Shown: positions 323 to 64,000, counted from the first letter of the stretch. The stretch is 64,000 nucleotides of DNA from an uncultured Lentisphaerales bacterium (GCA_943788985.1 CALSSJ010000026.1:87744-151743); one strand, 5' to 3'. A program made the numbers and translations. The notes: generated by a model not told the origin, from the sequence alone.

Positions 323-1021
323 TTGTCTTTCGCCAACGCGTTTGAACGCTATGATATCGGTGAGCAGTCCTATACGATTGCTGGCCGCACCATTTCAATC
401 TCTGCCCCACGTGACCCAGCTGTGCTGCTAGATGAACTGATCGCCAACGGCAGCGAGGTAGATGTGACGGACGAGCGGCTCCCGTACTGGGCTGAAATTT
501 GGTCGTCTTCGATTGCTCTGAGCGAGCATCTGCTGGAAGCTGGCGAGGTTGAGCCGAGCACGCGGTGCCTTGAGCTAGGCTGTGGATTGGGCCTGGTGGG
601 CGTCTCTCTGGGGTTTCGGACGCCGCATGTCCGTTTCACCGACTATCAGCCGGACGCTGTCGCTATGGCTCGGCACAACTGGCGCGGCGCGCACGGCGGC
701 GAGGCCGAAGGAGCGGTTCTGGACTGGCGCGAGCCCCCCGCCGACGGCCGCCGGTATGATCTGGTGGTCGCCGCTGACGTGGCCTACGAGGAGCGTTTTT
801 TTGCGCCCTTGGCCGATACCTTTTCACGCTGCCTGGCCCCCGGCGGCCACGTGATTCTGGCGGAACCAAGTCGCCCGGTGGCGGGAAGTTTTTACCTGAT
901 GTTGCGCGCCCGCGGTTGGTTGCATCAGGACACTCGCCGCACGGTGGCATCTAATCGCGGACCAGTGACCGTGCGTATTTCTACGTTTCGTCAGGGATCG
1001 TCGGCCGCTATTGCGTCTTGA
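323..1021 (+). CDS. Class I SAM-dependent methyltransferase (Methyltransf_16 / lysine methyltransferase-like)
   Basis: Motifs 'PYWAEIW', 'LELGCGLGL', 'TDY', 'LDW', '[10 protein letters not shown]'. Likely TTG start at 323; the ORF track starts at 260. Confidence 0.85.
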
Positions 1022-1073
1022 AAGGTCTTTTGTATACTACCAACTACCTCAGATTTCGCGTTCAGGAATAGAT

Positions 1074-2880
1074 ATGGCAGATCGCTCTCGCATCCGAAAC
1101 TTCTGCATCATCGCGCACATTGATCACGGCAAGTCCACGCTGGCTGATCGCTTCATGCAGCATACGTCCACCGTTCAAGACCGAGATTTCCAGGATCAAC
1201 TTCTGGATGACATGGATCTCGAACGTGAGCGCGGCATTACCATCAAGTCGCATCCGGTCCTCATTCACTATCGCGCCCAGGACGGCCACACCTACGAACT
1301 CAACCTGATCGACACGCCTGGGCACGTAGATTTTTCCTATGAGGTCAGCCGCAGCCTAGCGGCGTGCGAAGGCGCGCTGTTACTTATCGATGCCAGCCAG
1401 GGGGTCCAAGCACAGACCGTGGCAAACGTGACACTGGCCACCAATCTGGATTTGACCGTGATTCCCGTGATCAACAAGATCGACTTGCCAGCGGGCCAAC
1501 ATTGAGATGTGTAACGAGCAGCTTGAGGAGATTCTCGCAATTCCCGCTGACGAAGCGGTACACGCCAGCGCCAAGGCAGGCCTTGGCATTGAGGACATTC
1601 TTGAGGCAGTGGTCGCGCGCATTCCAGCTCCGAAGGAGCCGGAAGATGACTCCATTCGCGCGTTGATTTTCGACTCTGTCTATGACGCCTACCGAGGCGT
1701 GGTGAACTATGTACGCGTGGTCTCGGGAACGTTGGAGCGCGGGACAGCCATCCAGTTTTGTAGCACCAAGCTAAAATCGGAGGTCAAGGAAATCGGCGTA
1801 TTCTCGCCGGGAATGAACCCCAAGGACAAGCTTGAGCCCGGTGGCGTGGGTTACGTCATCGCGAACATCAAGTCACCCGATGACTCGAAGATGGGGGACA
1901 CACTCACTGGCACGCATAATCCTTGCCAAGACCCCTTGCCTGGGTTCAAGGAATGCCAACCCATGGTATTCAGTGGGATCTACCCAATCGACACTAATGA
2001 CTACGCCCAACTGAAGCTCAGCATGGGCAAGCTGCGCCTCAATGATGCCGCCTTCGAGTATCAGGCAGAGACTTCCGCCGCTCTGGGCTTTGGCTTTCGC
2101 TGCGGCTTTCTCGGGCTGCTCCATATGGAGATCATCCAAGAGCGCCTGCGTCGGGAGTACAACATGGACATCATCGCCACCTACCCCAGCGTAGTCTATC
2201 ACGTCTTCAAGACCGATGGCAGCTCCGTTCAGATCGACAACCCACTCCACCTTCCCGACCCGGTTAACATCGACCACATCGAAGAACCAATGGTCCTGTG
2301 CCATATCATGCTGCCCGGTGAGTATATCGGTGGCGTGATGAACCTGATCATGGACAAGCGCGGCTTCTGCCAGGAAACCATCTCCGTAGACCGCCTGCAC
2401 ATGATGTTGATCGCGCGCCTTCCCTTGCACGAGATCGTGATCGACTTCCACGACAAGCTCAAGACCATCACCCGCGGCTACGGCAGCATGGACTATGAAC
2501 CCAACGGCTACGAACCCGCCCCACTGGTGAAACTGGAGATGCGCGTGAACGGCGATCCCGTCGACGCCTTTGCCACGATCGTGCATCGCGATCATGCGCA
2601 ATCCCGGGGCCGTATTCTGGCCGAGCGCCTGAAAGACGTGATTCCACGCCACATGTTCAAAATCGCAATTCAGGCCGTCATTGGCGCCAATGTCGTGGCT
2701 CGCGAGACCATCGGGGCCCTACGGAAAGACGTGACAGCCAAGTGTTATGGCGGCGATATCACGCGGAAGCGCAAGCTGCTCGAGAAGCAGAAAGAGGGCA
2801 AGAAGAAAATGAAGCAGATCGGCAATGTAAACATCCCGCAGGATGCCTTCGTCAAGGTACTGAAATCCACGAAAAAGTGA
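1074..2880 (+). CDS. lepA: Elongation factor 4 (LepA), split by a +1 frameshift near 1493
   Basis: '[20 protein letters not shown]', 'ERERGITIK', '[14 protein letters not shown]', '[30 protein letters not shown]'. Removing one G from 'gcgggccaac' restores DLPAANIEM. Confidence 0.97.
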
Positions 2881-3098: not shown

Positions 3099-3881
3099 AT
3101 GTGGACCCTCGCTGATGCCACGCTCCAAAGCCGATTCCTAATCGGCACCGCCCTGTACCCATCTCCGGAGTCGATGCGCCAGGCGATCCAGGCGTCCGGC
3201 TCCGAAGTCGTCACAGTCTCACTGCGGCGGCAGCAGGCTGGCTCAGGCGGAGGCAACGACTTCTGGGAGCTGATTCGCTCCCTGAACGTCCACGTGCTGC
3301 CAAACACCGCTGGCTGCCACACTATCAAAGAAGTCATGGCCACCGCCCACATGGCGCGCGAGCTGTTCGACACCAACTGGATCAAGGTGGAGATCATTGG
3401 CGATGAATACACGCTGCAGCCAGACACCGCGCAGCTGCTGGCAGTCACCGAGAGCTTGATCCGCGACGGCTTCGAAGTCTTTCCCTATACCACCGATGAC
3501 CTGGTTGTGGCCCAGCGCCTGGCCGACCTGGGCTGCCGAATCGTGATGCCTTGGGCCTCCCCCATTGGCTCCGGCCAGGGCCTACTCAATCTCTACGCGC
3601 TCGAGACAATGCGCGCCAGACTGCCCCAGACTACGCTCATTATCGATGCTGGCATAGGCAAGCCCTCAGACGCTACCCGAGCCCTGGAGCTTGGCTTTGA
3701 CGGTGTACTGCTAAACAGTGCAGTCGCCCTAGCCCGAGACCCCGTGGGCATGGCCTCCGCATTTCGCTATGCCTTGAACGCTGGCCGAGCAGCCTACGAA
3801 GCCGGTGTAATGCAGCCGCGCAACATGGCCCAGCCAAGCACACCTACCTTGGGAACACCGTTCTGGGTGCAATCGAACTGA
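3099..3881 (+). CDS. thiG: Thiazole synthase ThiG
   Basis: 'LPNTAGC', 'WIKVEIIGD', '[12 protein letters not shown]', '[11 protein letters not shown]', '[10 protein letters not shown]'. Confidence 0.97.
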
Positions 3882-3897
3882 TGCAGTCTCGCCAGCG

Positions 3898-4782
3898 ATG
3901 AGCATCGCGGTCATCCGCTTCAGTGCGCTTGGCGACATCGCCAGCGCCCTCCCCTACATCCGCGCCCTCCGCGAGGGCCCGACCCTCATTACCAGCGGCA
4001 TGGGTGCTGGCCTGCTCCAGGACGAATTCCCCGACATTCACGTACTCAAGAGCAAGCGCATCCGCGACGTGTTCAGCCTCGTTTGCGAACTCCGCAAACA
4101 GCGCTTCGACCATTTGATCGACCTGCAGAACAACGATCGCTCGCGGCTAATCCGCAGCTTGACCAGCGCGCGAGCCAAGATCTCCAGCAAGGGCATGCCA
4201 GGTGGGGTGCCCAATCTGGATAACTTCCACCGCATCATGATGCCCAGCGGCTTGCTCCAGGAACCGGACACCAGCTTTACTCCGAAGCCATGCGACTACA
4301 TCGTCTTGAATGTCGCCTCCAGCTCCAAATGGCACGCAAAGCGTCTGCCAGTGGCAAAGTGGCAGCAGTTCGCAGCCTTGCTGCACGACCGCTACGGGCT
4401 GCCGTTTAAGCTCACTGGTGGGGCTGACGAGCGCGACTATGTTGCGGAGGTCGCAGCCCAGCTGCCGGGCGAGTGCGAGAATGTCGCGGGCCAGACCAGT
4501 TTAGTCGAGCTGAAGCTACTGCTGCGCAACGCCTTCTTGGTGGTGTCTACCGACTCCGCAGCCATGCAGCTAGCAGCCGCAGAAAAGACACCCACAATCG
4601 GCCTGTTCGGCTGCACGAACTGGGTCCGTGCCCGCCCGTTCGGCCCCTGGAGCACAGTGCTATACGACAAGGCCGTGTATCCCGACGATCAGCCCCCGCC
4701 GGTTAGCATCGAAACGCCCGGTGCCTACTACGACGGCATCGACCTGGCGGACGGCTTGACCGCCTTGGCCAAGTTTCTCTGA
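3898..4782 (+). CDS. Glycosyltransferase family 9 (heptosyltransferase-like)
   Basis: 'IRFSALGDI', 'IDLQ', 'AGQTSLVEL', 'STDSAAMQLAAA...TIGLFG'. Confidence 0.9.
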   Translation: MSIAVIRFSALGDIASALPYIRALREGPTLITSGMGAGLLQDEFPDIHVLKSKRIRDVFSLVCELRKQRFDHLIDLQNNDRSRLIRSLTSARAKISSKGMPGGVPNLDNFHRIMMPSGLLQEPDTSFTPKPCDYIVLNVASSSKWHAKRLPVAKWQQFAALLHDRYGLPFKLTGGADERDYVAEVAAQLPGECENVAGQTSLVELKLLLRNAFLVVSTDSAAMQLAAAEKTPTIGLFGCTNWVRARPFGPWSTVLYDKAVYPDDQPPPVSIETPGAYYDGIDLADGLTALAKFL

Positions 4783-4957
4783 CGCCGCCCTAGCCCCAGT
4801 CCAAGCGATCGGTGGCCCCTCCAAAAGGTCGTCTCGGGTCGAGGTCCATCGCTAGCAGCCGATTCGAGTCGGCCCCCTCGAGGATCTGCTCGAAACCAGT
4901 TTTGTTTCGCGTAAATGAAATACGCGTGTTTCGCGGGCAGCTTCTTTAAGGGTCCTG

Positions 4958-6589
4958 CTAGTCCACCTTCCCCTGATGATGGTGCGCTAGGTATTGCGTA
5001 AACGCGTAGTGCACCACATTCACCCCCAGCTTGTAGGCCTGGTTTGCCAGCCCTTCATGAATCCCAGAGTGCCCCGTTTTCCAGGCATCGTTCAGATCGC
5101 CCTGATGGTAGAACGCCACCCACCGCCCATCATGGCGGAGTCCGACCGCCTCGCGCCCCGAGTGATGCCAGAAGGCAGGGGCCCCATTCGGGAACAGATG
5201 CGGATGCTGAAACATCTGATCATCTCGCGAGATCGTAATCCAGCTCTTCTCCGGAAACACCCGCTTCATCGCCGCGCGAAAGGACGTATTAAAGGTGCCG
5301 CCCCCGTTGTCAGCGAAAATCATGCCGCCCTCTTTCAGACAGTAGTCGCGCAGTGCCGTCACTTCGTGATTGGACACATTCATGCCACCGCGCCCGGTGA
5401 GAAAGACGAACGGGGGCGCCTTCCCCTTCGGAAAAAATCGCAGCCGCCCGATCGTACGCTGCTCGGCACGCCGTGCTACTGGCAAGCCCGTGATCTGGCC
5501 CAGCTTAAACAGCATGTTGTCATCGGCTGACAGGTGCAAATCCTGATCCCAGTCGCCCCCGTCGTATTGCAGGCGAATGAAACGAACGCGCCCCGGCATG
5601 CCGTCCGGCCAGCCGCCCGAAGGGCCACTGGCATCTCCAATTTTTCCTTCGACACCGCGAGCCTGATACTCATTTTGAGTGACTTTCTCCGTTTCTTCTA
5701 AAATCTCGCTCTCGTCTGGATCAATGTGGTAGAACAGAATGTCCGTGTTCATGGAAAGCACCAGCTTCTGCTTTTTCACCTTTTCCTTTTTAACCCGCCG
5801 TATTTCAGTAAGGACTACTTTCGCGCCCTGGCCTTCCGGAATCTCGTAGGGCTCCTCCCAACCGCAGCCGCGCAACAACACCGGAATCAGAATCAGCCAG
5901 GCGCAATGCAGCCCTGTGGCCCACCAGAGCGATGACGAAAACTGTGGATCGTCCCCGCCACTGCGCAAAGCAGGCAATAAGCGATCGCCAATCAAGCGAG
6001 CTCGCCTCAGCCCGTAGTGCGCCTGTACCTTGGCCCGCAGCAGCGTCAGCCAGGCCAGCACCAGCCAGCCTCCGAGCAGGATCCCGATTCCTAGCGTGCG
6101 CAGCCAAGAAGCGTTGCGCATGAAGCGGTGAAAAGCCTGTGGCTGCAGACCGTGCAGCAATGTGGGCCCTTGTAGCAACAGCACGATTAGCAGCACAAAG
6201 GCAGCGCTGCAGGCCAGCAGCGCGACTCCCTGCAGTCTGGCAATCACTCGGCTCCGCCAGCGAGCCAAGACGACCCCAGCCAGCAGTAATACCGCTACGC
6301 CTCGCAGCGCTACTAGCACCAGTTGAAACTCGTACGAGTACGCCAACAGCCCCAGCACCTCCAACTGGTCCTCTCCGAGCCCGGCGCCGTGCCGCAAAAT
6401 GCCTGCGTCCGCCCAGACCGCCAGGATGCAAAGCACAGCCAAGCTAGTCAAGGCGGACGCTGTCTGCGCAATCGGGCTCAGTCGGCCGAAACTCCGATCA
6501 CTCAGCGCGAAGCAGGCGTTCATCAGCCAGTGCACGCTGCGATGGGCCAGCCCGCACAGTCCCCAGAACGCTGTCCGGAGTCGGTCCAT
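4958..6589 (-). CDS. Multi-TM membrane protein with C-terminal DUF4159-like domain
   Basis: Several hydrophobic helices, then 'FIRLQYDGGDWDQD...PFVFLTG...LRDYC..EGGMIFADN...AYKLGVNVVHYA'. Confidence 0.75.
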   Translation of the reverse strand: MDRLRTAFWGLCGLAHRSVHWLMNACFALSDRSFGRLSPIAQTASALTSLAVLCILAVWADAGILRHGAGLGEDQLEVLGLLAYSYEFQLVLVALRGVAVLLLAGVVLARWRSRVIARLQGVALLACSAAFVLLIVLLLQGPTLLHGLQPQAFHRFMRNASWLRTLGIGILLGGWLVLAWLTLLRAKVQAHYGLRRARLIGDRLLPALRSGGDDPQFSSSLWWATGLHCAWLILIPVLLRGCGWEEPYEIPEGQGAKVVLTEIRRVKKEKVKKQKLVLSMNTDILFYHIDPDESEILEETEKVTQNEYQARGVEGKIGDASGPSGGWPDGMPGRVRFIRLQYDGGDWDQDLHLSADDNMLFKLGQITGLPVARRAEQRTIGRLRFFPKGKAPPFVFLTGRGGMNVSNHEVTALRDYCLKEGGMIFADNGGGTFNTSFRAAMKRVFPEKSWITISRDDQMFQHPHLFPNGAPAFWHHSGREAVGLRHDGRWVAFYHQGDLNDAWKTGHSGIHEGLANQAYKLGVNVVHYAFTQYLAHHHQGKVD

Positions 6590-18884: not shown

Positions 18885-19740
18885 TCAGTCACCTTCGACG
18901 ATGGACCAGGCCCCTTTTGGGAAGAAGGTCGAGCCAGTGCCAATAATCTCCGGGGCATCGTAGCGATAGTTGGCCACATTGCCAGCAGCCATCAGGTAGT
19001 TCACCTTCAGCACATCCCCATGTTTGGTCAACGTGCCATTTGCTGAGTGGATGAACATTTGAACGTCCGGGTAGGCTAGATCCTGTCCGTAGCCCTGGGT
19101 GCCATTGCTATTGTTCCAACGCTCCCACTCGGTGAGCAAGATCGTTCCTGTCGCATCAGCCACATTGGCTCCCTTGCGTTCGAATTTGGTCTGCGAAAAA
19201 AGATAGCCGGGGCTTGAGGCCCAGTCGAACGGTGCGCGGAGCCCGATGGCGTCACGAGACTGGTTATGAATGCGCGGCATGGCGTAATCCTGCGCCGCTC
19301 TGTAATGGTCGCTACTGGTGCGAAGTGTGCTTGCTGATGGGCATTGGTAGAGATCGGTTGCGAATCCGTTGTTGTACGTGAACCACTGCCACATCAGGGG
19401 CGTTTGTCCGCCTTGAATATATGGATATAGGGCCTTGTCCCAACCAAAACCTGCGAATCCTCCAGCCGAGTCGCTTCCAGCATACGGAAAGTGGTCATCA
19501 TAGTCATCCATGTACATGGCGTTGGCCAGGCCCATCTGCTTCAGGTTATTGGCACAGGCAGCCCTCCGGGCTGTGCCGCGTGCTTTGCTAAGTGCTGGCA
19601 GTAGCAGCGATGCCAAGATCGCAATGATGGCGATGACGACCAGCAACTCAATCAACGTAAACCCGTGCCGAATGGCATTGCGTGGCGATTGCTGATAGAA
19701 AAACGTTTTGCGACTACTAAATCGGGGTGTGTGGTGTCAT
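18885..19740 (-). CDS. Prepilin-type N-terminal cleavage/methylation domain protein (DUF1559/H-X9-DG-like)
   Basis: '[44 protein letters not shown]'; C-terminal '[15 protein letters not shown]'. The ATG at 19740 joins the frame only if one base of the run at 19724-19727 is removed. Confidence 0.85.
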
Positions 19741-20300: not shown

Positions 20301-20369
20301 GAAGCAGTACCGATCGTGCCGGTTTTACGGTCAGATTTAGCGATCCGCTGCAGTTTTTACTTGCCATTC

Positions 20370-20735
20370 AGCGGTCCCCAATACTTTTTTTAGCGCAACA
20401 TAGCCGCCCATGAGTTCGCCTATGACCTTGTCCTTCTGCCGAAGCTTCTCCTCGAAACGATTGATCTGGGCATCCTGGCGTTTCTTGACCGGGTTGCGCT
20501 CAAAGGCGGGATGCCCGCCTGCAAACAGCTTCCTCTGCCAGCGATAGAACATCGCTGGACTGATCTGGTATTGATCGCAGACATCTGAGACCGGACGGTT
20601 CTCGATCAGGTGTTCACGCAGAATCGTAACCTTCTGCTCGGCGCTGTAGGACTTTCGTGTTACCACAAGGCTCTCCCCATCTCTTTTGAAGAGCCTCTTA
20701 GCAAGCCCAACCGAGATGTCCAATTTCAGCTGAGG
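20370..20735 (-). mobile_element. Truncated IS3-family element (orfA HTH plus A7G frameshift site; orfB lost)
   Basis: 'RKSYSAEQKVTILREHL...VSDVCDQYQISPAMFYRWQRKLF' (HTH_Tnp_1-like). AAAAAAAG at 20391-20384 at the end of orfA; no DDE domain follows. Confidence 0.75.
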
Positions 20736-20879
20736 CGAAGCAACCTTGCCTGCTTGGCAGCGCCTCACCGCCACCTTTCTCGCCCTTGGCGTAAAGCTGC
20801 CATTTCCCGAAATGGCAGCTAGCGCACCCGGCAGCCTCAAGAGCATCGGCTATCGTCTCAGCGTCCTCGGCAACGCCAT

Positions 20880-21217
20880 CCCAATTGGGGACCGGAGTCA
20901 GCCGCATTTTTTTTGGGGTCCCGGTTGGTCAAACTGACAACAAAAGCATGGTGCCGTGACGTATAGTTTCCGGATAGAAGGCAGGCGCGGGCGGGCTGAC
21001 AGTTCGCGGCATTGGCATACGCATCAGTAAAGACCACCCCCTGTTTGGCCATGGTGTCGAGTACCGGTGTTTTGCATTCGCCGTGAGATTGATAAACAAC
21101 ATCCTTCCATCCCTGATCATCCGCATAGGTTAGAACAATGTTCGGACGGGTGTTGGCTGCTGCAAAGAAGGGAGCAAAGGGCTGGGCCAAAATTCCCAAC
21201 CATTGCGATTACTTCAT
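20880..21217 (-). pseudogene. Sulfatase N-terminal remnant
   Basis: 'RPNIVLTYADDQGWKD...TPVLDTMAKQGVVFTDAYANAANCQPARACLLSG'; early stop after 'MK' and truncated downstream. Confidence 0.8.
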
Positions 21218-21238
21218 TGGTTGGTCCCCTTTTCCTCG

Positions 21239-22646
21239 GAGTAACTTGCAGAAGTTGTTTATGACGAGTTTGAAAGGGTGAGGCGCTCTGCCCACGGTAC
21301 GGGTGTCGAAGGCCAAACAGAGGGAGAGCGCCTCATGCTCACCTCATCTTTTGAATCGTTGTCGTCAACTGGTGCACAGGCCAGCTTAGAAGAAGCGCTG
21401 GGTGGCCACCCGCGCGGTGCGCCGCAGGAAATGCTCGAAGAAGAACTTGGCCAGTTTCTCAACGAGATGCGCGGCGAGCGAACAGATGATGGTCGTCAGG
21501 CGGTTGTTCGCAATGGTTGCCACAAAGAGCAGTTTATCCAGACCGCTCTTGGCCTGGTTCCCGTTTTTGTTCCACGTGCGCGGGATCGCTCTGTTGGTGG
21601 TGATGGTTTTCAAAGCGCCATCATTCCACACTGCAAACGACGATCTGTCACCTTGGATAAGGCAGTCTGCTACTTCTAGCGCAAGGGGGTGTCCACTGGC
21701 GACATGTTGCCGGTGCTGCTGGAGCTGTTCGGGCCTGACGTCGGCAACCTTTCGAGCGCGTGCGTGAGCCGGCTGACAAGTCGCTGGAGTGACGAGTACC
21801 AACAGTGGAAGAGCCGTGAACTGAGCACTGAGCAGTACGTATACGTGTGGGTTGACGGCATCCACTTCAACGTGCGCACGGACGAGAACAAGCTCTGCAC
21901 GCTGGTGGTCATGGGATCGACCAAGGACGGCCGCAAAGAACTCATCACGGTGGAAGGCGGTTACCGCGAAAGTACCGAGAGTTGGGCGGTCATGCTGCGC
22001 GCTCTTCGCAGCCGTGGCATGCAGCCACCGAAGTTGTTTATTGGCGACGGTGCTCTTGGCTTCTCGAGCGCCGCTGGTCAAGTCTACCCCGAGAGTTGCA
22101 ATCAGCGGTGTTGGGTTCACAAGTCGGCCAACATCCTCGACAAGCTGCCCAAGAAGGTGCAGCCGAAGACCAAAGGCATGATTCACGAGATGTACCAGGC
22201 CGAGACCAAGGCCGACGCCCTGGCAAGGCATCAGCGCTTCCTGAATGGGTTCACAAACAAGTATTCAGGGTCGGTGGCCTGCCTAAATGACAGCTTCGAC
22301 GAGCTGTTCGCATTCTACGACTTCCCGGCAGCCCACTGGCGCCCCATCGGCGCAACCAACCCGATCGAGTCGACGTTCGCCACCGTCCGTAAACGGACCT
22401 ACTCAACCCGTGGACAAGGCTCGCAGACAAGCACACTGGCCCTGGCTTTCAAGCTTGCTCTGGAGGCGTCCAAGGGGTGGCGACGGCTAAACGGACACGC
22501 CCTGATCATCAAGCTCTTCGGCCCAAGCATAATGTTTGAAAACGGAATCGAAAAACACAAGTAAGCTGCTTAAACCAAGACACTGGTGACCCCGAAATGA
22601 CTGACCTCACCCCACAAATCCCGTACACAACATTCGAAAGTTGCTC
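21239..22646 (+). mobile_element. IS256-family insertion sequence (about 1.41 kb) with imperfect terminal inverted repeats
   Basis: Left end 'gagtaacttgcagaagttgtttatg...gggtgagg'; reverse complement of right end 'gagcaactttcgaatgttgtgtacg...gggtgagg'. No matching target-site duplication. Confidence 0.88.
21335..22564 (+). pseudogene. IS256 (Mutator) transposase with in-frame TAG at 21677
   Basis: 'VVRNG', 'VPRARDR', 'KGVSTGD', 'YVWVDGIHF', 'IGDGALGF', 'QRCWVHK', 'TNPIESTFATVR'. Confidence 0.9.
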
Positions 22647-23180: not shown

Positions 23181-24032
23181 TCAGCGGGTGCTGTCCCACC
23201 AGGTGTCAGTGACATTCGCGGCGCCCGCGGTGGTGCCGTCGTCTCGTGTCAGCGACTCCATCACGCTCATGGGCTCGACGTGCCCGTCGGCCATGAGAAA
23301 ATTGTAGGGCTTCCCGCCCAGATGATGAGGCGTCACGCGGTTTAGCAGTGTATAGGCCTCCAGCCCCTGCCATTCCCAAGAGCATCCGAGACGCGCCCAC
23401 CAGATCACCGCCGGATCGCCGCTCATCTCCGTGAAGGTGATGGTCCCGGAAGGCTGGCTGATCTCGGACTCCTTGCGCGAGAAAGTGTTGGCAGCATTGG
23501 GGGCGATGAACCCGTAGATGCCCAGGCCGGGCCGGCCACCGCCGGGGGTCTGCGTGGGATAGTAGGTGATGCGGATGTGGTTGCCGTTTGGCGGTTGGCT
23601 ATCCGAAGGGCAGCGGTACAGCGCGCCATGATTGAATCCGCCGGGCAGGTCCCCCTCCCGAGCGCCCCAGCGTCCATTTAGCAACGAGCCGGTGGTCATC
23701 TGCGCCAAGGTCAGGCTGCGTCCGTCATAGGCGCTGAGAAGGTCGTCCCAACTGATCCCACTGCTCCCGAGAGCCACCGGATAATGCGACTCGCTGTCTT
23801 GAAGGTACATCTCCGCCACCAGGCCAATCTGCTTGAGGTTATTCAGACAGGCGGCCTTACGACCTTTCTCCCGGGCCTGACTCAGTGCCGGGAGCAGCAG
23901 CGCCGCGAGAATCACAATAATGGTAATGACCACAAGAAGCTCGATCAGTGTAAATGGTGCACGCCGAACAGCTTGCGACTGTTCGGAAAACCAGTCGCTG
24001 CTGCCGCAGTTCAAGACGCGCCTCTGGCTCAT
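23181..24032 (-). CDS. Prepilin-type N-terminal cleavage/methylation and H-X9-DG domain protein
   Basis: '[45 protein letters not shown]', 'YRCPSD', '[17 protein letters not shown]'. Confidence 0.92.
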
Positions 24033-40093: not shown

Positions 40094-40918
40094 TCAGTTC
40101 AGCCCCTGACAATCCCACATCGTGCCATCCGATCGACTCTCAGTCCAAGGACGTACGCCGAGATAGGAGTCACCAAAGTTAAACTTCTCTGCGTGGCCAT
40201 CGCCGAACAGCCCCTGCTGGAACAGCCAGCCATGCACCCAGAAGTCGAACGACAGCCCCAGGTCGTTGATCTTCTGGACCGTAACGGCAGAATTCGAGGG
40301 CGCCCCGCAGTTGTTCCATGGACTGGCAACGTCGCTCATGACGATTCGCGCAGCAGGATCAACCACCTGCTCCAACTTCAGCGAGAACTCATCACCGGGG
40401 GCGACCAAGCCGACTCCGCTGCCGCCATCCGACACCCCCGTCATGTAGCGGCTTGCAAGGTCCGTGGGATCGCCGTGATTGAGAGCATAGGATCGCCTGG
40501 TTCGCGTGCCCACTGTCGCTCCCGGCAAACGATCGTCCAGCGGACAATGGTAGACCGGAAAGGCGAAGGCGGGGGCATCGGTGGCGGCTGGCGTTGAGCC
40601 CCCCGGATTCACGCCTTCGACCTGCCAGGTCTCGAGCGCCCGGCCATCGAACCCGTTGAGCAAGTCATCCCACGTGACCGAATACGTCCCTCCGTCTCCG
40701 TTGTTCGTTGGATAATGTCCTTCGTACTCGTCTGCATACATCATGATTGCCGCCCCAATCTGCTTGATGTTATTCAGGCAGACCGCCGTGCGGGAAGTCT
40801 CTCTTGCCTTGGCCAACGACGGCAGCAGCAGCGAAGCCAAGATCGCGATGATCGCAATCACCACAAGCAGCTCAATCAACGTGAAAGTCATCTGTCGTTC
40901 GGGGGGGCCCTGCTTCAC
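40094..40918 (-). CDS. Prepilin-type N-terminal cleavage/methylation and H-X9-DG domain protein
   Basis: GAAGGAG RBS plus GTG 40918; '[40 protein letters not shown]', '[14 protein letters not shown]'. Confidence 0.92.
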
Positions 40919-56935: not shown

Positions 56936-57859
56936 ATGACTGAAGATACAAAAGCCCCCAACCAGCCCCGGACGATCCTTTTCGGGAAATCCGAGTACAC
57001 GTTTCCGAGTGATGAATTGCGTCCGCTACGCGATAGCAGCGATGTCTTGGGAGATGCCGAGGCGATGCGGGAACGTCTGGCCGAGGATGGGTTTCTCTAC
57101 CTGCCCGGTTTTCTGGACCGTGAAGAAGTGCTGGCCGCGCGTCGGGAGATTCTGGCCTACATGGAGGAACAAGGCGGTCTCGAGCCGGACTCGCGCCCAT
57201 TGGACGGGGTCATGGGCCAGTACGGAAAAGGCGTGCCGATGATGGGGCGAAAGCTAATTACCCATCGCGACGCAGTGTCGCGAGTGCTGGCTGCACAGAG
57301 GTTGTACGAATTGCATGAGATGATTCAGGGCGAACCGGTGACGACGTATGAGTACAAGTGGCTGCGGGCCGTTGGCAACGAGGAATTCACGGGTGCGCAC
57401 ATGGACCACGTCTATATGGGCCGCGGCTCCAAGCGGCTGATGACAGTGTGGATTCCGTTGGCAGACATCCCCGTGGAACAGGGAACGCTGTGCATCGTTC
57501 CGGCAACCCACCGCCTTCCCGAGTTTGAGAAGCTGCGCAATACCTATGGGCGAATGGACGTGGACCGAGACCGGACTGAGGGCTGGTTTACGAAGAAGCC
57601 GCGGGAAATTACAGATACATTCGGCGGCTGCTGGCATACGACGAATATTCAGGCAGGGGATGTGATTACATTCGGGATGCATCTGATGCATGCCTCGACG
57701 ACCAACCTGACGGACAAGTGGCGGATATCCTGCGATGTGCGCTTCCAGCCATCTGCTGACCAGATTGATCCGCGCTGGGCGGGCAAAGAGCCCAAGGGAC
57801 ACCGACCGGCTCCTGATGAACGCCCCATGGCCGAAGCCCGGGCCGAATGGGGAATATGA
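56936..57859 (+). CDS. Phytanoyl-CoA dioxygenase (PhyH) family Fe(II)/2OG oxygenase
   Basis: 'EDGFLYLPG', HxD 'TGAHMD', 'TVWIPLADIP..QGTL', 'AGDVITF...MHAS..N...WRISCDVRFQ'. Confidence 0.9.
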   Translation: MTEDTKAPNQPRTILFGKSEYTFPSDELRPLRDSSDVLGDAEAMRERLAEDGFLYLPGFLDREEVLAARREILAYMEEQGGLEPDSRPLDGVMGQYGKGVPMMGRKLITHRDAVSRVLAAQRLYELHEMIQGEPVTTYEYKWLRAVGNEEFTGAHMDHVYMGRGSKRLMTVWIPLADIPVEQGTLCIVPATHRLPEFEKLRNTYGRMDVDRDRTEGWFTKKPREITDTFGGCWHTTNIQAGDVITFGMHLMHASTTNLTDKWRISCDVRFQPSADQIDPRWAGKEPKGHRPAPDERPMAEARAEWGI

Positions 57860-57974
57860 TAGTAATCAGCTGCACGAATCGAGGGGGTCACGCGGAGCGC
57901 GTGCGCTCGCGTGAATGGCCTCGCCGAACCGAGAGAATCATGGTTGGAAGAATCACGATGCTGCCAGACACAGG

Positions 57975-58382
57975 AAGGAAAAGCTGCTGAAGGATTGGCA
58001 GCTGATGGAGAAGATTGCTGATGCTGGCAAAATATGCGTGTAGCGATTCGGGCCAGAGCCGACACCCGATTCAGCGCTGTCGCAGGGGGCTCACGAGGCC
58101 CCAATCACTCACAGGACCAAGCAATAGGCCGACTTGTCTCGAAAGCAATTGCCGTTCTATCTCTCAGTGTACCTGATCGGTGCCCAGCCACATTCCTATT
58201 TCCAGTGGAATTGGGTCTGGGACTTGAGAGCGGGGCCGCTCGAACACTATCCAGAATTTCAGCGACCGCTGGGCAAGTACCGGCGGGTTCACCCGGATCG
58301 CTGGGAGTTTACCCGCGACTTTGAGCACGTCAGCGTCTGGGTCGATACAGAGAAATGGCAAGCGAACCTGGACTGGAAATAG
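57975..58382 (+). pseudogene. C-terminal remnant of a GHL15-like hydrolase, paralogue of 17719-18828
   Basis: 'KDWQLMEKIADAGKICV*RFG...YLIGAQPHSYFQWNW.WDL..GPL...EFQRPLGK' aligns to the 17719 ORF; TAG at 58041 replaces Trp. Confidence 0.85.
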
Positions 58383-58391
58383 CCTCCTGTA

Positions 58392-58448
58392 AAGCGCCGC
58401 CCCAACATTCTTTTCCTGTTATCAGATCAGCAGCGAGCGAACACTCTG
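58392..58448 (+). pseudogene. Sulfatase N-terminal micro-remnant
   Basis: 'KRRPNILFLLSDQQRANTL'. Confidence 0.5.
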
Positions 58449-58500
58449 AACGTTCGAATCGAAGCTTGTTGCCCCTGCCCCCGTCCTCAACGCCAAAGAC

Positions 58501-58552
58501 TGGTTAGCGCTGAGCTCCCAATCTAGGTAGGGAGCTCAGCGCCAATCATTTT
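58501..58552. terminator. Strong hairpin, probable intrinsic (possibly bidirectional) terminator
   Basis: 13-bp perfect stem gcgctgagctccc / gggagctcagcgc, extendable to about 19 bp, followed by tttt; lies between convergent units. Confidence 0.55.
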
Positions 58553-58685
58553 GAACAGATTGGTGATGGCCGTCGGCTACGAGCCAGAGTACCAACTGAG
58601 TACGATGACTCCGATCAATCCGAACCGCAATCGTCAACCACGCACTGCACCTGTTAGCGCCAAGGCGCCATAGGTGAGTGCGGGG

Positions 58686-58744
58686 TTATAACGTCACTCC
58701 TCAGGCGCGGCCTTCAGGACGTCGCCTGCAGGAGATGGTTCGGT
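58686..58744 (-). repeat. attC site A (59 bp)
   Basis: Minus: ACCGAAC catct CCTGCAGG ... CCTGAGG agtgac GTTATAA; L'' carries one extra base. Confidence 0.9.
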
Positions 58745-60337
58745 TCGTCCTCTGTAGGCGGTGTTTGCCCTGGTTGAACGTTGCATGCTTTTCATGGATG
58801 TTGCTTTGTCCCGTTTCGCAGATGTCTGCTCCTTGCTCTCGCCCGGGTTCACATACCACTCGCTGTCGATATGGGCTTCGGTAAAGACCTGCCTGAGTCT
58901 GTCGATGACCTCCGGATTGCTTTTTGCTAGATCATTCTTGCACGCAAGGTCCTCAGTGACGTCATACAGCTTTATCGGTTTGGAAGGGTGATCCCGGTAT
59001 GCCCACCACTGATCCAGGCGAATACTTTGAGCATGCGGTGACATGGTTCCATTCTCCCAATAGAGATATCGATGTGTCTCTTGTTCATCCGGTTTGCCGC
59101 GCAGTATCGGGGCGAAGCTGATCCCATCGGTTTTCGGGGGAGCGATACTTGCCAGGTCGGCTACCGTTGCCAATACGTCATACAGGGCGCAGAGGTGGTC
59201 ATTTTCTCCTGCCTTAATCTTGTCCTTCCAATAGACGAAGAAGGGAACTCGCACACCACCTTCATGGGTGGAGGTGAACTTCCCTTTCGGCCATGGACCT
59301 TTGTTCTTGAACAGAGGATCATCCTCATGTCGAGGTCTGCCGAAGTACCCCCACTGGCTGTATCCATTGTCACCGGCAAAGAAGATTACGGTGTTATCCA
59401 GGATCTCAAGCTGCTCCATCAGGTCAACCATCCTTCCAACGCCGCGGTCCAGGTGCCCGAGCATGGCTGCCCATTCCTTGTGTTTCAGGTCCCAAGGCTT
59501 GTCTTTGTAGGCTCCAAGGTCGGGTGTGATACACGGGCCGTGGGGAAGTTGGGTTGCGTAGTAGAGGAAGAAAGGTTTGTCCCGGTTCTTTTTAATAAAC
59601 GAAAGAGCCTCATCCTGGAACAGGTCTTCGGAATATTTTGCCGCGGCGGCGACTGGGACACCGTCGGGGACGAGGTGCCCATGCTCGTCGTATATGTTCT
59701 TCACGTCGTCCAGTCTATCTGGCGGACGCCCATTGTAGGTGTAAACACGCTTCATGTTGAATCCGTAATTCTCAGGAATCGGCTCCGGCTTCCCGTTTCT
59801 CATCAGGTAGTGGGGGAAGAAGCCATGAGCCCGCCCCTGATCGTAGTATCCGTACGAGAAGTCGAATCCCTGCTTGTCAGGAGCTCCCTCGGTGCCGGGC
59901 AAACCAATGCCCCACTTGCCGATAAAACCTGTGGTGTACCCGGCCCCTTTGAGCACCTCGGCCACCGTGACATCCTCACTCAACAGGTGATCCTGTCCCC
60001 GGACTGAACTATTTGCGCGGATACGGCAATGTCCCATGTGCATTCCGGTCATCAGGCTTCCGCGGGATGGGGCGCATTCCGGCGAACCGCTATACGCCTG
60101 AGTGAACCGGATGCCGTTCATTGCCAGCTTATCGAGATTGGGAGTCCGAAACTGCTCTTGTCCGTAGCTGCTCAAATCGCGGTATGACAGGTCGTCTGAG
60201 AAAATGAACAGTATATTGGGCTTGCGCTCGAGCTCTTTTGCGAGCGTCGAGCAACAGAGCATCGCCACCGTAATCATACCCAGACCAAGGTGTGTCAGGA
60301 TGTGCCATTGTCCAAAAGCTCGTTTAGTACTTGTCAT
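58694..60337 (-). CDS. Sulfatase (S1, Cys-type) carried as a gene cassette
   Basis: AGGAGG RBS right after attC B; 'PNILFIFSDDLSY', 'CAPSRGSLMTG', 'GKWG', 'HEGGVRVP'; stop codon lies inside attC A. Confidence 0.95.
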   Translation of the reverse strand: MTSTKRAFGQWHILTHLGLGMITVAMLCCSTLAKELERKPNILFIFSDDLSYRDLSSYGQEQFRTPNLDKLAMNGIRFTQAYSGSPECAPSRGSLMTGMHMGHCRIRANSSVRGQDHLLSEDVTVAEVLKGAGYTTGFIGKWGIGLPGTEGAPDKQGFDFSYGYYDQGRAHGFFPHYLMRNGKPEPIPENYGFNMKRVYTYNGRPPDRLDDVKNIYDEHGHLVPDGVPVAAAAKYSEDLFQDEALSFIKKNRDKPFFLYYATQLPHGPCITPDLGAYKDKPWDLKHKEWAAMLGHLDRGVGRMVDLMEQLEILDNTVIFFAGDNGYSQWGYFGRPRHEDDPLFKNKGPWPKGKFTSTHEGGVRVPFFVYWKDKIKAGENDHLCALYDVLATVADLASIAPPKTDGISFAPILRGKPDEQETHRYLYWENGTMSPHAQSIRLDQWWAYRDHPSKPIKLYDVTEDLACKNDLAKSNPEVIDRLRQVFTEAHIDSEWYVNPGESKEQTSAKRDKATSMKSMQRSTRANTAYRGRTEPSPAGDVLKAAPEE

Positions 60338-60355
60338 TTTGTCGTAGCCTCCTGT

Positions 60356-60482
60356 ACCGAACGTCAAAGCTGACCCACGCCTGAACGGAGAGCGAGCTTT
60401 GACTTCAGGATGATTGTTTGGCCGGACATTGCGCTTTCGACTCGCAGCGGGGCAGGCGTTGGCGTCCAGCCGCTTGTTCGCT
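60356..60482 (-). repeat. attC site B (127 bp)
   Basis: Minus: AGCGAAC aagcg GCTGGACG ... GGTCAGC tttgac GTTCGGT. Confidence 0.9.
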
Positions 60483-60493
60483 CGCGAATGCCC

Positions 60494-61531
60494 CTACTTC
60501 TTTGCTTCCGAGCGTTTGAGGTAAATGGACTTGTCATAATAGGACACATGAGCATCGGTTGCGTTCAATACATCCATGCCAATGATACACGAATGTTTTT
60601 TGATTTCTCCCGAAACTACAGACGTCCTGGGGCGCACACCGGCAATCGATATTTTTCCAATTCTGAATTCCTCGAGTTCAACCCGTTCCGATTTATGAGA
60701 GTGGCCGTTCGCATTCGTTGTGCCTCCCCCCGCAGCCCCGCCCGACCCGCTCAATGCCTGATTCCTGTAAGGCCTTTGGATTCACCGCCGTTTTGGTGGC
60801 GCCCGTATCAAGGAGAGCCCGCATTTTCTTCCCGTTAATTGAGGTCTCGACCAAGGTTCTCTTTTTTTTTGCAGAAGGGAATGAAGCAATATCTCCAATT
60901 GGGGCAATCAAATTCGATTGGGTGGCGATAGTATGCCTCCTGGTCGGTGAAAGCGTCCCGAGTTGGAAAGCTGACATCGGCACCCTTCTCAGGCACTTCG
61001 AGCAGGAGGGCCTGATCGGGAATAGAAAGAATGGCATGAAGCGACTTCATGACATCCTCTCCAATGATGGCCACAACAGGCGGGGCGTCATCCCCCTCTG
61101 CTTGTACAACAAGCTGAAAATCATCCGCATTGTTCGCCACAACGGAAAGAGGGCCGATTTGAAAGTGGATATCCACCTCATAGGACTCATGGACCTCACC
61201 CATCATACCATAAATGGTTTTTTCCCGCTGGCCTGTCGGCAATCTCGAACCCGCGTTCCTGGAGATAAGAGCGATTAAATCTGGTTTCCATCGCTCCTGT
61301 ATCTAGCATGGCGAAGGCCTCTTCTCCCCCGACAACGATCCGGATGAAGAGATGTCCTGAATCGTGAATATCGGAACAGCGACCGCATAGCAGACCTATT
61401 TTTCCCTTCTCAAAAGGGTGCACATAAAAGACGGGCTTCCTGGATATCTCGCTTGCGGAAGGAAAGATGACCGCGATCAGCACCGCGACGGCTGCGGCGA
61501 AAACCGACAAAAGTAAGATTCTGCGCGGCAT
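60494..61531 (-). CDS. Cassette-borne retropepsin-like aspartyl protease with two DTG domains, broken by frameshifts in homopolymer runs
   Basis: 'FAMLDTGA' and 'RALLDTGATKTAV', 'IIGEDVM', 'IIGMDVL'; frame changes near 61220, 60865 and 60730. Confidence 0.75.
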
Positions 61532-61543
61532 CGGTAGATTATG

Positions 61544-61602
61544 AGCGAACGTTACGAGTGACCCTTCGCGGGCCCGCGATAAACTCCCCACGCTGGTTGG
61601 CC
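61544..61602 (-). repeat. attC site C (59 bp, L'' arm degenerate)
   Basis: Minus: GGCCAAC ... tcgcgggcccgcga hairpin ... GGTCACT cgtaac GTTCGCT. Confidence 0.75.
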
Positions 61603-61981
61603 GTTCTTGTTTCAACGTGAATCTGCATACAAGCAGAGAAAGCAGGAGCACGAGATAGGAACCGGGCCATCCGACCCAGAGATTACATGGTGTCGCAACG
61701 ACTATCCATGTAAGCGCCGATGCTCCGGTGATCATGCCGACCTTGACGGGCGGGAGTCTCCATCCCAGAAGGGTATAGAATGGCCACGAGATGATCGCGC
61801 AGACCGCAACAGGCATCGACAAGCCCAGCAAGAAAGGAGGATGGTGGAGCGTGGACAGCCCATGAGCTAAGAAGACCTCCGGCAGACTCAGCGTTTGCAC
61901 GATTAGCCAAGCCGTAGCGAAGACGAGCGACGAGATGACGCTGACTCCGAGGTACGCGATGACTCTGTGCATTGTTTTCAT
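61603..61981 (-). CDS. Cassette-borne small 4-TM membrane protein (no stop codon before attC C as assembled)
   Basis: ATG 61981 just after attC D; four hydrophobic segments; frame runs through attC C. Confidence 0.6.
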
Positions 61982-61987
61982 TTTATC

Positions 61988-62063
61988 GGCGAACGTCCAA
62001 GCTCACCCGATGAGGCCGGCCGCGGAGCGCCTGGCCGAATTAGGGTGAAGCGCAGTGTTCGAT
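61988..62063 (-). repeat. attC site D (76 bp)
   Basis: Minus: ATCGAAC actgc GCTTCACC ... GGTGAGC ttggac GTTCGCC. Confidence 0.9.
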
Positions 62064-62102
62064 TGCATCGGCAGCCGAGTTGACATGACGAGAGAGATCA
62101 GT

Positions 62103-62444
62103 TTATGAAGGGTCAGCAACGGGATCCTCTCCAAATCTGTTCGGACCTGTGGTCCCTTTTAGAAAGCAAATTTCTGTCAAAGGCCATAGGTTTACGAGTG
62201 GAACTAGGTAAAGCAAAATAAACCATCCGGAGCGGTTGCGATCATGACACCGCTTGATTTGGACTGCCAAGAATACCCAAATCGCTAAGAAACCAACTAT
62301 AGAAGAAAATAATTCCCGCTCTATTAGGCCATCAATTATGCCCACGATGATAGATATACCTGCAAATGCCAAATATGTCCTCAACCAGAGATCGGACCGG
62401 CTTGCCCTTCCCTTTGGTGAGAACCACAGTGTTATTATATTCAT
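62103..62444 (-). CDS. DUF805 family membrane protein (cassette)
   Basis: 'FSPKGRASRSDLW', 'AVQIKRCHDRNRSGWFILL', 'KGTTGPNRFGEDP'. Confidence 0.92.
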   Translation of the reverse strand: MNIITLWFSPKGRASRSDLWLRTYLAFAGISIIVGIIDGLIERELFSSIVGFLAIWVFLAVQIKRCHDRNRSGWFILLYLVPLVNLWPLTEICFLKGTTGPNRFGEDPVADPS

Positions 62445-62466
62445 TTCATTTCCTTTTATCTAGTGA

Positions 62467-62564
62467 ATCGAATGTCAAACGCTCGCCGAATCAGGTCGAG
62501 TGCCTTTAGGCGTCCCCGCCGGGAGGAGGTCTTGGATTTAGCAGTTAAGCATATGAAGTTCGGC
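62467..62564 (-). repeat. Degenerate attC site E (right half recognisable, R' = ATTCGAT)
   Basis: Minus '...GGCGAGC gtttgac ATTCGAT' resembles the right arms of B and D; TTCGAT matches the R'' of attC D; left boundary uncertain. Confidence 0.55.
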
Positions 62565-62623
62565 CCCTGGCCTCAACTTCCCGCTCATAAACAGCTTCCG
62601 TGTGCCATCAGCAAATCTTATGT

Positions 62624-62682
62624 AGCGAACGTCACTCCTCAGGCGCGGCCTTTAGGACGTCGCCTGCAAGAGATTGTTCTGC
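62624..62682 (-). repeat. attC site F (59 bp, same family as A)
   Basis: Minus: GCAGAAC aatct CTTGCAGG cgacgtcctaaaggccgcg CCTGAGG agtgac GTTCGCT. Confidence 0.9.
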
Positions 62683-63396
62683 GGCTCTTCGTTCGTCTCG
62701 CATTACTGAGATCTGCGCTACGAGAAAAACTATGCCCAGTGCGAGGACACACAGTCCGACCGAAAGGAAGATGAATGTAACCCCCCGAAAGCCTGGCTCG
62801 AGTAGACACTTGCCCGGCTTATCGGGCATATAGTAGACGCGAGCACTGCTACCCTTGGGGTAGCGTTTGACGATGCGTCTTGCATGGGCCGACTTGCCTC
62901 GGCTAACATCTGTAGATGCGACACGATCGCCTTTGTATGTCACGCCATCAACGGTGAACTCATAAGTGACTTTGGCATGGTAAGATGTGCTTCTGTCCGT
63001 TCCGCTTCCCGACGTTTCACGCTCGACCACGGACTGCAGGATTCGGGCTTCGGTGCTGGGCCAGGTTCTGCTCTCAAAGCCCAGGGCAAGACCATGGATG
63101 CCGAACGCGGTAAATACTGTGCCAACCACGAGAAAAAGGGAAATGAAGCCCCATGTGGCTTTTGACTCCTGTTTTGCGGTCAGGGCGGGACGTGATGACG
63201 GCGCGGGCATGGCTTCCGGGAACTGCTCACTCATCCTGGAGACAATGCGTCCGGTCTCCATCGCGGCTTGAATCTTGCCAAGGCCCTTCTGCTCTATCAG
63301 TAACTGAGCCGCTTCCCGACACCTGTCTTGATAAATAAGGTCCTGAACGTCCCTGGGCACATCTTCCAAGTACTGCCTCTCACGCGTGTCATTCAT
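62632..63396 (-). CDS. DUF3592-like membrane protein (cassette)
   Basis: 'SRTWPSTEARILQS...VTYEFTVDGVTYKGDR...YPKGSSARVYYMPDKP..CLLEPG' between two TM helices; stop lies inside attC F. Confidence 0.85.
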   Translation of the reverse strand: MNDTRERQYLEDVPRDVQDLIYQDRCREAAQLLIEQKGLGKIQAAMETGRIVSRMSEQFPEAMPAPSSRPALTAKQESKATWGFISLFLVVGTVFTAFGIHGLALGFESRTWPSTEARILQSVVERETSGSGTDRSTSYHAKVTYEFTVDGVTYKGDRVASTDVSRGKSAHARRIVKRYPKGSSARVYYMPDKPGKCLLEPGFRGVTFIFLSVGLCVLALGIVFLVAQISVMRDERRAAEQSLAGDVLKAAPEE

Positions 63397-63410
63397 CCTT
63401 CCATCTCCTG

Positions 63411-63469
63411 GCAGAATGCCACTCCTTAGGCGCGGCCTTTAAGCTGCCGCCTGGAGGAGATTGTTCGTA
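63411..63469 (-). repeat. attC site G (59 bp, same family as A/F; R' = ATTCTGC)
   Basis: Minus: TACGAAC aatct CCTCCAGG cggcagcttaaaggccgcg CCTAAGG agtggc ATTCTGC. Confidence 0.85.
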
Positions 63470-63472
63470 CTG

Positions 63473-64000
63473 CTATTGTACTTCTGCTTCAAAAGCCCCT
63501 GCGACAAAGCTCTTTGCCTCGTCCGGCAGGCGCAGATGAATCTTGCCGGGTATCTTGCCGTTCGAGGCGGTGCCGAACTCCAGTTTCATGGAATAGCCTT
63601 TTAAATAGGTTTCCGATTCGGGCAGCCTGCTGCCCTCGACCTTGTATTTCAAATAGATATGCGGTTGCTGCACTTGACCTTGCCGATTGGGTTTGACGAG
63701 GATAGTTTTTCCTGCAAGCTCCTTGACGGACGAACCAAGGATAAAAATTTCAAAGGCTTGATCGGGGAAGAAGCCTTCCCCCTGCATTAATTTCAGGTTT
63801 CCCTGGCTGCTCAGCGTCGCCTTTTCGACGGTGAAGGCAACGCCATGAACACTTCCCTTGGCCGTTCCGGCGGGGATGTCGTTTTCAGTCACATCGGCCG
63901 CCGCTGGTGGAGGGGGGGCATATCGTTTTGCAAAAGCCTCTTTGCTGATTCGGTTCAAGACAAACTTATCCTTCTCCCAGCTGAGCGTGAGTTGATCGTG
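63473..64000 (-). CDS. Hypothetical cassette protein, 5' end beyond the window
   Basis: Frame open to base 64000; stop 3 bp before attC G; C-terminal 'KGYSMKLEFG....KIPGKIHLRLPDEAKSFVAGAFEA'. Confidence 0.7.
   Translation of the reverse strand, partial: HDQLTLSWEKDKFVLNRISKEAFAKRYAPPPPAAADVTENDIPAGTAKGSVHGVAFTVEKATLSSQGNLKLMQGEGFFPDQAFEIFILGSSVKELAGKTILVKPNRQGQVQQPHIYLKYKVEGSRLPESETYLKGYSMKLEFGTASNGKIPGKIHLRLPDEAKSFVAGAFEAEVQ

Follow-up and report, generated by a model that had tools for sequence, protein, structure and literature searches.

What are the seven short elements that separate a run of minus-strand open reading frames (ORFs) at the right-hand end of a 64,000-nucleotide stretch of DNA (hereafter the window) from an uncultured Lentisphaerales bacterium (GCA_943788985.1, CALSSJ010000026.1:87744-151743)? 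All sizeable ORFs from 58686 to 64000 lie on the minus strand and, read on that strand, each of the elements between them begins with a 7-mer ending in AAC. An earlier note, made from the sequence alone, took the elements for attC recombination sites and the region for an integron, or an attC cluster without an integron integrase (CALIN), in a bacterium of the PVC (Planctomycetes-Verrucomicrobia-Chlamydiae) lineage. Our analyses support this view: with a probability that we put at roughly 0.9, positions 58686-64000 make up the distal part of a chromosomal array of integron cassettes that continues past the right edge of the window. Integron-type cassettes are the best-supported reading of the array because its sites match covariance models, site stems covary, cassette boundaries obey the complementarity rule of integron recombination, the attC family concerned adjoins an integron integrase (IntI) in a related contig (L011), and the sulfatase cassette of the window recurs in a second genome (L014), with the homology ending at the R' box. 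The array is a good but fairly ordinary example of an element of known kind. Of most interest to specialists are the identity of one attC family across phyla, its translation in a single phase and the enzyme cargo.

We scored the elements with covariance models built in three rounds. The first (R1) drew on 24 sites, three of them from the window, and the second (R2) on 36 matches; the third (R3) was built from 45 matches solely from other genomes, with no window sequence inside, and was run over the whole window on both strands with filters off. The seven elements are given below with their R3 scores; E-values are rough, the calibration having been shortened.

58686-58744, minus strand: attC site S1, 59 nt, R'' ACCGAAC, R' GTTATAA; the array's last site, of repeat family D4 (74.4 bits, E ~5e-19).
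60356-60482, minus strand: attC site S2L, 127 nt, R'' AGCGAAC, R' GTTCGGT, with long-range arms (I19) (33.2 bits, E 6e-7).
61544-61602, minus strand: marginal attC-like site S3, 59 nt, R'' GGCCAAC, R' GTTCGCT (13.3 bits, E 0.4, rank 6).
61988-62063, minus strand: attC site S4, 76 nt, R'' ATCGAAC, R' GTTCGCC (23.6 bits, E 4e-4).
62467-62550, minus strand: degenerate attC remnant S5, 84 nt, R' ATTCGAT (no recognition by R3).
62624-62682, minus strand: attC site S6, 59 nt, family type, R'' GCAGAAC, R' GTTCGCT (78.7 bits, E ~3e-20).
63411-63469, minus strand: attC site S7, 59 nt, diverged family member, R'' TACGAAC, R' ATTCTGC (47.2 bits, E ~5e-11).

All R3 matches to these sites are on the minus strand and end exactly at the R'' and R' boxes. 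Five sites have E-values below 1e-3 (S6, S1, S7, S2L and S4), and the best match elsewhere in the 64 kb has an E-value of 0.52. R1 had recovered S1, S6 and S7 only, and two widening rounds were needed to reach the others; the R3 scores of S2L and S4 are free of seed circularity. The seven attC sites of the earlier note thus resolve into five supported sites, one marginal site (S3) and one degenerate site (S5). Its coordinates and its count of four sites of exactly 59 nt (S1, S3, S6 and S7) were right, as was its remark that most cores are of GTTC type: C occupies position 4 in six of the seven R' boxes. The inverse core AAC closes R'' at all seven sites, and R' starts with GTT at five and with ATT at S5 and S7. 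The five significant sites are spaced 0.6-1.6 kb apart, and the minus-strand genes end at the sites. S1, S6 and S7 form one repeat family (52 nt, 81-94% identity) and, rather than being scattered without relation to ORF ends, its palindromes occur exactly three times in the 64 kb, every time in the array. An Rfam scan of 57500-64000 returned no attC family and a single chance-level miRNA match, on a palindrome at 58501-58548. Splitting S2 in two, with 60356-60422 as a 67-nt site followed by a second one, was considered and dropped: R1 gave this arrangement an E-value of just 2.3, and R2 and R3 align a single 127-nt site.

In the known integron mechanism, IntI, a tyrosine recombinase, would fold the bottom strand of attC (here the plus strand) into a hairpin, cut at the AAC of R', excise cassettes as circles and insert them at attI; the first bases of a cassette are therefore proposed to complement that cassette's own R''. 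Read from right to left along the minus strand, each cassette in the window starts with TTnnnn (the part of R' after the crossover), carries one promoterless gene or none and ends in its own attC, the closing part of which comprises R'', L'', the loop, L' and the first base of R'. At the six window junctions the core after the crossover matches the cassette's own R'' at 6, 2, 6, 5, 6 and 6 of six positions, a total that is reached by 6 of 720 permutations. The earlier note had claimed self-consistent boundaries, and all five core/R'' pairs that it listed are correct, but the junction missing from its list, S6 to S5, does not conform. The R' of S5 matches the R'' of S4 at 6/6, and the cores of S3 match those of both neighbours (5 and 6 of 6). 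The rule extends to arrays in other genomes, where 23 of 41 adjacent site pairs are perfect on the four informative bases and 31 of 41 match at three or more; shuffled pairings gave a mean of 2.9 perfect pairs, and none of 10,000 reached 23. Complementarity of this kind is what the cutting and joining of cassettes within R' leaves behind, although the rule is symmetric and hence silent on which strand is the top one. It also bears on a quite different explanation, in which the elements belong to no integron and only mimic attC, being either palindromes between genes (REP-like elements or terminators) or a coding motif conserved at protein C-termini. A boundary rule that holds across 41 junctions is not expected of plain palindromes, and we consider this explanation very improbable.

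The hairpins themselves were examined by folding and by covariation. The bottom-strand DNA fold of S1 has a z-score of -4.4, with none of 200 shuffles as good; S6 (z -2.5, 3 of 200 shuffles), S7 (z -1.7, 10 of 200) and S4 (z -1.5, 18 of 200) follow. The bottom-strand folding that the earlier note had proposed as a check thus bears out these four sites but not S2L, S3 or S5. An imperfect L''/L' hairpin is present by fold in S1, S4, S6 and S7 and by model only in S2L, and is absent from S3 and S5. For the 45 R3 sites, all from other genomes, the proportion of paired cells is 87.5%, as opposed to 72.7% in shuffles and 33-50% in slid controls, in an alignment that was fitted to the model and so favours the structure. 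The L stem shows changes on both sides in 12 of its 13 pairs, and a bulge sits at one L-stem column in 44 of the 45 sites. In 14-21 of the 45 the four outermost R-box pairs do not form, as would be expected were R' made up of parts of two cassettes. Terminators explain the palindromes poorly: terminator-like matches in the window (9) lie near the shuffle level (mean 5.3, sd 2.6), and no attC site was called a terminator. Promoter-like matches in the window are at chance.

A 20-mer from the core of the S1/S6/S7 family is found in 26 contigs of a genome collection (designated here by L numbers), with one copy in each. All 26 belong to metagenome-assembled genomes (MAGs): 20 are labelled as PVC (Planctomycetota, Verrucomicrobiota, Lentisphaerota, Kiritimatiellia or 'PVC group'), five carry labels outside PVC and one is unclassified. 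Many of the contigs are short, the binning of mobile DNA is unreliable, and the source genome of the window is not among them. The internal 45 nt of the family site are almost invariant, with the invariance of the 3' arm following by construction from the 20-mer search, and R'' and R' are variable. R3 identified 69 sites in the related contigs, up to 14 per array and always on one strand within a contig.

Two of these contigs link the family to an integrase. L011 encodes a full integron integrase (454.6 bits on TIGR02249, for which the cut-off is 265, with profile positions 1-314 of 315 aligned) that is 48% identical to IntI1. Its gene, co-oriented with the cassettes, is followed by a second tyrosine recombinase gene (Xer-like, 3720-4928, overlapping the end of intI and preceding the first cassette), a GTTAGCC junction and three cassettes that obey the boundary rule, one of which ends in a family attC. 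A promoter search of the L011 attI region returned no promoter call. L021 carries an N-terminal IntI fragment at its contig end, diverging from four attC sites. An integrase motif regular expression retrieved L011 only; phmmer added L021 and the second recombinase. That an IntI adjoins this attC family argues against plain palindromes or a mimicking motif, as does a cassette common to two genomes: the window sulfatase cassette is present in L014, where it can be aligned up to the end of that contig at 88.7% nucleotide identity over 878 nt. The alignment halts precisely where the GTT of R' is reached, with unrelated flanking sequence on the far side. This break point provides indirect support, from sequence comparison, for excision or insertion of the cassette.

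Are these sites oriented to their genes as canonical attCs are? When R3 was run on the class 1 integron of plasmid pR55, its first match was the attC of aadB (5208-5267, 26.6 bits, E 1e-5) and its second the attC after blaOXA-21 (E 0.56), both on the gene strand and just after the gene. The PVC sites therefore share both the canonical layout and the canonical orientation to genes, and the recovery of canonical attCs by a PVC-trained model is again not what intergenic palindromes or a coding motif would lead one to expect. In agreement with this orientation, when the ORFs that end at a site are compared between strands, the one on the model strand is the longer at 43 of 51 sites (medians of 183 amino acids on the model strand and 44 on the other). 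In the L011 array a gene directly follows the attI-like junction with no hairpin ahead of it, and the window array closes with S1, beyond which there is no minus-strand gene.

The 60-nt aadB attC resembles the sites described here in having an R'' that ends in AAC, a short spacer, an imperfect L''/L' stem, an R' that starts with GTT, one unpaired base on the R''-L'' arm and a 3' spacer that is one base longer. It differs in the unpaired stem base, which on the top strand is C in aadB and G in 36 of the 45 family sites. Stop codons differ in position too: aadB stops at a TAA in R'', whereas termination here is usually at a TGA close to the site's 3' end. Finally, the canonical R' consensus of class 1 attCs is GTTRRRY, whereas R' here is mostly GTTC or GTTG.

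Several observations weigh against an integron. A phmmer search found no IntI homologue among the ORFs of the 64-kb window. The strong R3 scores of S1, S6 and S7 are partly circular, the family having been seeded from the window. S5 is recognised by no model, scoring at best 4.4 bits when R3 was applied to the S5 region alone, and S3 is only marginal (13.3 bits, E 0.4). Folds of S2L, S3 and S5 are no better than shuffles (108, 136 and 109 of 200 as good, respectively, with z +0.5 for S3 and +0.1 for S5), a point in favour of plain palindromes or a coding motif. The S6 to S5 junction fails the boundary rule (2/6). Moreover, the base exposed in the folded bottom strand is typically G, and the unpaired bottom-strand base is C in 36 of 45 sites, compared with G in the one canonical site examined (aadB).

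Some sites show signs of decay. S5 resembles the family only at its 3' end (TGAC followed by ATTCGAT) and in a loop-like piece. An alternative R'' for S5 was sought by eye; GCCGAAC near 62566-62572 fits at 4/6, and none was convincing. We infer that S3 and S5 are decayed sites and, since A also replaces G in two R' boxes, that part of the array is probably frozen and no longer mobile. R' begins with A rather than G at window positions 62473 (S5) and 63417 (S7), and in L019 (9971-10029) and L007 (4925-4977). This recurrent substitution, at the position paired with the cleaved AAC, may mark fixed cassettes. R3 also misses two L011 sites that are visible by eye and is thus of limited sensitivity to unusual attCs.

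The S1/S6/S7 family has a further property, translation, that bears both on its nature and on cassette expression. The sulfatase and the DUF3592 protein of the window have the same C-terminal residues, both genes reading through their site (S1 and S6, respectively) to an internal TGA. This stop codon lies 11 nt before the end of the site and ends one base before the GTT of R', which places a common tail, ...AGDVLKAAPEE, on unrelated genes (at S1 and S6, and at family sites in L001-L024). Of 73 sites, 35 have an incoming open frame of 80 amino acids or more; 21 of these 35 frames terminate at the TGA position just described (22 with the L001 site, the model coordinates of which are one base longer), 12 stop elsewhere in the site and two have no stop in it. 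The bias is sharper among the 27 sites of family type (at least 59 bits): a long frame enters 19 of them, always in the same phase (19/19, binomial ~9e-10 against one third; 18/18 if two homologous sulfatases are counted once), and the TGA in attC stops 18 of the 19. At non-family sites 8 of 16 frames are in that phase, which is not significant. The family site is open in exactly one frame and supplies the stop codon. The genes concerned are unrelated: the 17 relatives scanned include sulfatase, WbsX-like, GH43, GHL15, MORN-repeat, pectate-lyase-like and BNR proteins, with nine in no family, and the window adds DUF3592. A search with the last 40 residues of the sulfatase for unrelated proteins bearing the tail gave nine candidates and three matches, all close sulfatase relatives, and is uninformative on how frequent the tail is.

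That 18 of 27 family sites are translated into a shared protein tail, and that the 59-nt core is nearly identical across phyla, which is unusual for attC, speaks for a conserved C-terminal motif. Coding is nevertheless not the cause of the conservation, because the stem changes are compensatory, the loop codon varies freely (V, S, R, D or G), and the site sequence is kept where the gene stops earlier (S7, L013 and L021). Combined with the boundary rule, the adjoining IntI and the shared cassette, these features largely refute the view that the elements have nothing to do with an integron.

Two causes of the phase bias can be envisaged for integron attCs. Selection may favour read-through by ribosomes, which would melt the attC hairpin and help expression of the next, promoterless cassette, or cassettes may be compacted or created by the in-frame fusion of genes to a ready-made attC. 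In one study, most resistance cassettes are reported to have a stop codon that lies within the overlap with attC, and translation continued into attC is reported to have raised downstream expression about 2-fold (PMC11511950); a review describes short ORFs in attC that act by termination-reinitiation (PMC8876359). These published translation effects fit a functional reading and may explain the phase bias. The one-frame read-through in turn offers a natural test of the effect of translation across attC on cassette expression. A more far-reaching proposal, that this near-identical family across PVC phyla is built for translation and, with a C exposed on the bottom strand, is served by integrases that may read strand identity differently, strikes us as rather unlikely.

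Accepting the array as an integron's, does it stand alone or belong to a complete element? It could be a CALIN, in which attC sites are clustered without a neighbouring integrase; such an array would be stranded or decaying and would be mobilised only by an IntI acting in trans. We give this a little under even odds. The 64 kb are free of IntI, two of seven sites are decayed, two R' boxes have A for G, the protease gene is frameshifted, and gene debris and an inverted attC-like hairpin lie at the left end; the IntegronFinder paper counts 279 CALIN in its genome set (Cury 2016, PMC4889954). The array, however, leaves the window on the very side where intI would lie, related arrays (L011 and L021) have an adjacent intI, and three sites are nearly intact family members. 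The second possibility, for which the chances also fall just short of one in two, is a complete sedentary chromosomal integron, of which the window holds the distal end, with intI, attI and the cassette promoter Pc beyond 64000. Consistent with it are the chromosomal context (lepA, thiG and sugar-use genes), at least seven cassettes on one strand, an orientation that places the platform to the right, and the complete platform that L011 provides with the same attC family; that attC homogeneity is limited to three of seven sites speaks against it.

Either form has precedents. According to the same paper, integrons and CALIN occur in Planctomycetes and Verrucomicrobia among other phyla, and sedentary chromosomal integrons and CALIN share with our array attC sites clustered on one strand at spacings below 4 kb and non-resistance cargo (PMC4889954). 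A difference is that just three of the seven sites here are homogeneous. Integrases co-oriented with their cassettes are likewise in print (PMC4889954; PMC2426708), and the L011 intI shares this co-orientation, which defines the inverted-integrase ('reverse') integrons of, for example, Treponema (PMC4889954). L021, with the same attC family, is arranged in the classical divergent manner, which shows that the family goes with more than one arrangement. Taxon-specific attC models, including one for Planctomycetes, also exist, and conservation of attC sequence and structure within a taxon is established (Ghaly 2021, PMC8352920). The 20-mer identified here occurs in MAGs of several PVC groups and in five MAGs labelled outside PVC. 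Our literature searches found no paper joining attC, integrons and Kiritimatiellae, and none of the papers listed for integron gene cassettes and sulfatase was evidently about PVC sulfatase cassettes. PVC integrons are known mainly through automated surveys, and the locus described here adds an array with well-defined limits, carried by a chromosome of PVC type. Because one attC family is nearly identical in several phyla, it offers a handle for tracing a shared cassette pool.

Six cassettes are delimited completely within the window and the seventh leaves it. From right to left, their contents are as follows.

63473-64000, minus strand: 3' part of an open-ended cassette ORF of no known family, with no Pfam match; stop 6 nt before S7.
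62632-63396, minus strand: DUF3592 membrane protein gene (Pfam E 2.7e-17); cassette B, 62630-63416, 787 nt.
62551-62629 together with S5, minus strand: ORF-less unit of 157 nt, one of the six delimited cassettes.
62103-62444, minus strand: DUF805 membrane protein gene (Pfam E 4.8e-23); cassette D, 61994-62472, 479 nt.
61620-61981, minus strand: small hydrophobic ORF (61196-61981) with no Pfam match; cassette E, 61550-61993, 444 nt.
60494-61531, minus strand: two-domain retropepsin-like aspartic protease (Pfam gag-asp_proteas, Asp_protease_2 and RVP on pieces); cassette F, 60362-61549, 1188 nt.
58694-60337, minus strand: sulfatase gene (Pfam Sulfatase, E 1.4e-51); cassette G, 58692-60361, 1670 nt.

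The sulfatase has an AGGAGG ribosome-binding site and an ATG after the R' of S2L. In cassette E the ORF lacks its own stop codon, and its frame crosses S3 into the region of the protease start codon; cassettes E and F may give a single fusion product, or S3 may have decayed. The protease contains three frame changes, at ~60726, 60862 and 61218, near homopolymer runs. Outside the array lepA (1011-2877, plus strand) is also split, at ~1502, which suggests that assembly indel errors are just as likely an explanation of the frame breaks as real decay.

The cargo of related arrays (L002, L003, L008, L011, L014, L017 and L024) comprises GHL15, BNR, GH43, WbsX-like and pectate-lyase-like proteins and several sulfatases. 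Large carbohydrate-active enzymes are unusual integron cargo in both size and kind. As the arrays carry large polysaccharide-degrading enzymes (sulfatases, GH43, GHL15 and pectate-lyase-like) rather than resistance genes, integrons may shuffle glycan-degradation genes among PVC bacteria.

The left end of the array adjoins a second hairpin.

58632-58692, plus strand: S0, a strong hairpin with an attC-like layout (fold z -4.7, none of 200 shuffles as good; R3 12.2 bits, E 0.83).

S0 and S1 converge, their tails meeting on a shared self-complementary core, GTTATAAC. S0 may represent an inverted attC, for instance as the trace of an inversion or of a second array; alternatively, the hairpin may be unrelated. 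On the left of S0 there is a C-terminal GHL15 fragment (58134-58382, profile positions 214-269 of 271), directly followed in the next frame by a sulfatase N-terminal motif; the palindrome at 58501-58548, on the same side, has 24-nt arms. Related arrays (L002, L014 and L024) carry complete GHL15 and sulfatase genes in their cassettes, and a tblastx comparison of 57860-58700 with related loci gave no matches.

The rest of the window is chromosomal and PVC-like, with lepA, thiG, four further sulfatases, three DUF1559 proteins, glycoside hydrolases and sugar transporters. The PVC lineage that the earlier note had guessed fits the DUF1559 proteins, the further sulfatases and the PVC labels on 20 of the 26 contigs with the attC 20-mer. 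GC content is ~51-55% in the array compared with 57-63% at 50-55 kb. Each of the three DUF1559 paralogue genes contains one copy of a 131-nt repeat (19531-19661, 23824-23954 and 40755-40885). Insertion sequence remnants lie between the DUF1559 repeats (20340-22561) and consist of an HTH_Tnp_1 ORF and a transposase of the Mutator family, whose match to the profile begins at position 116.

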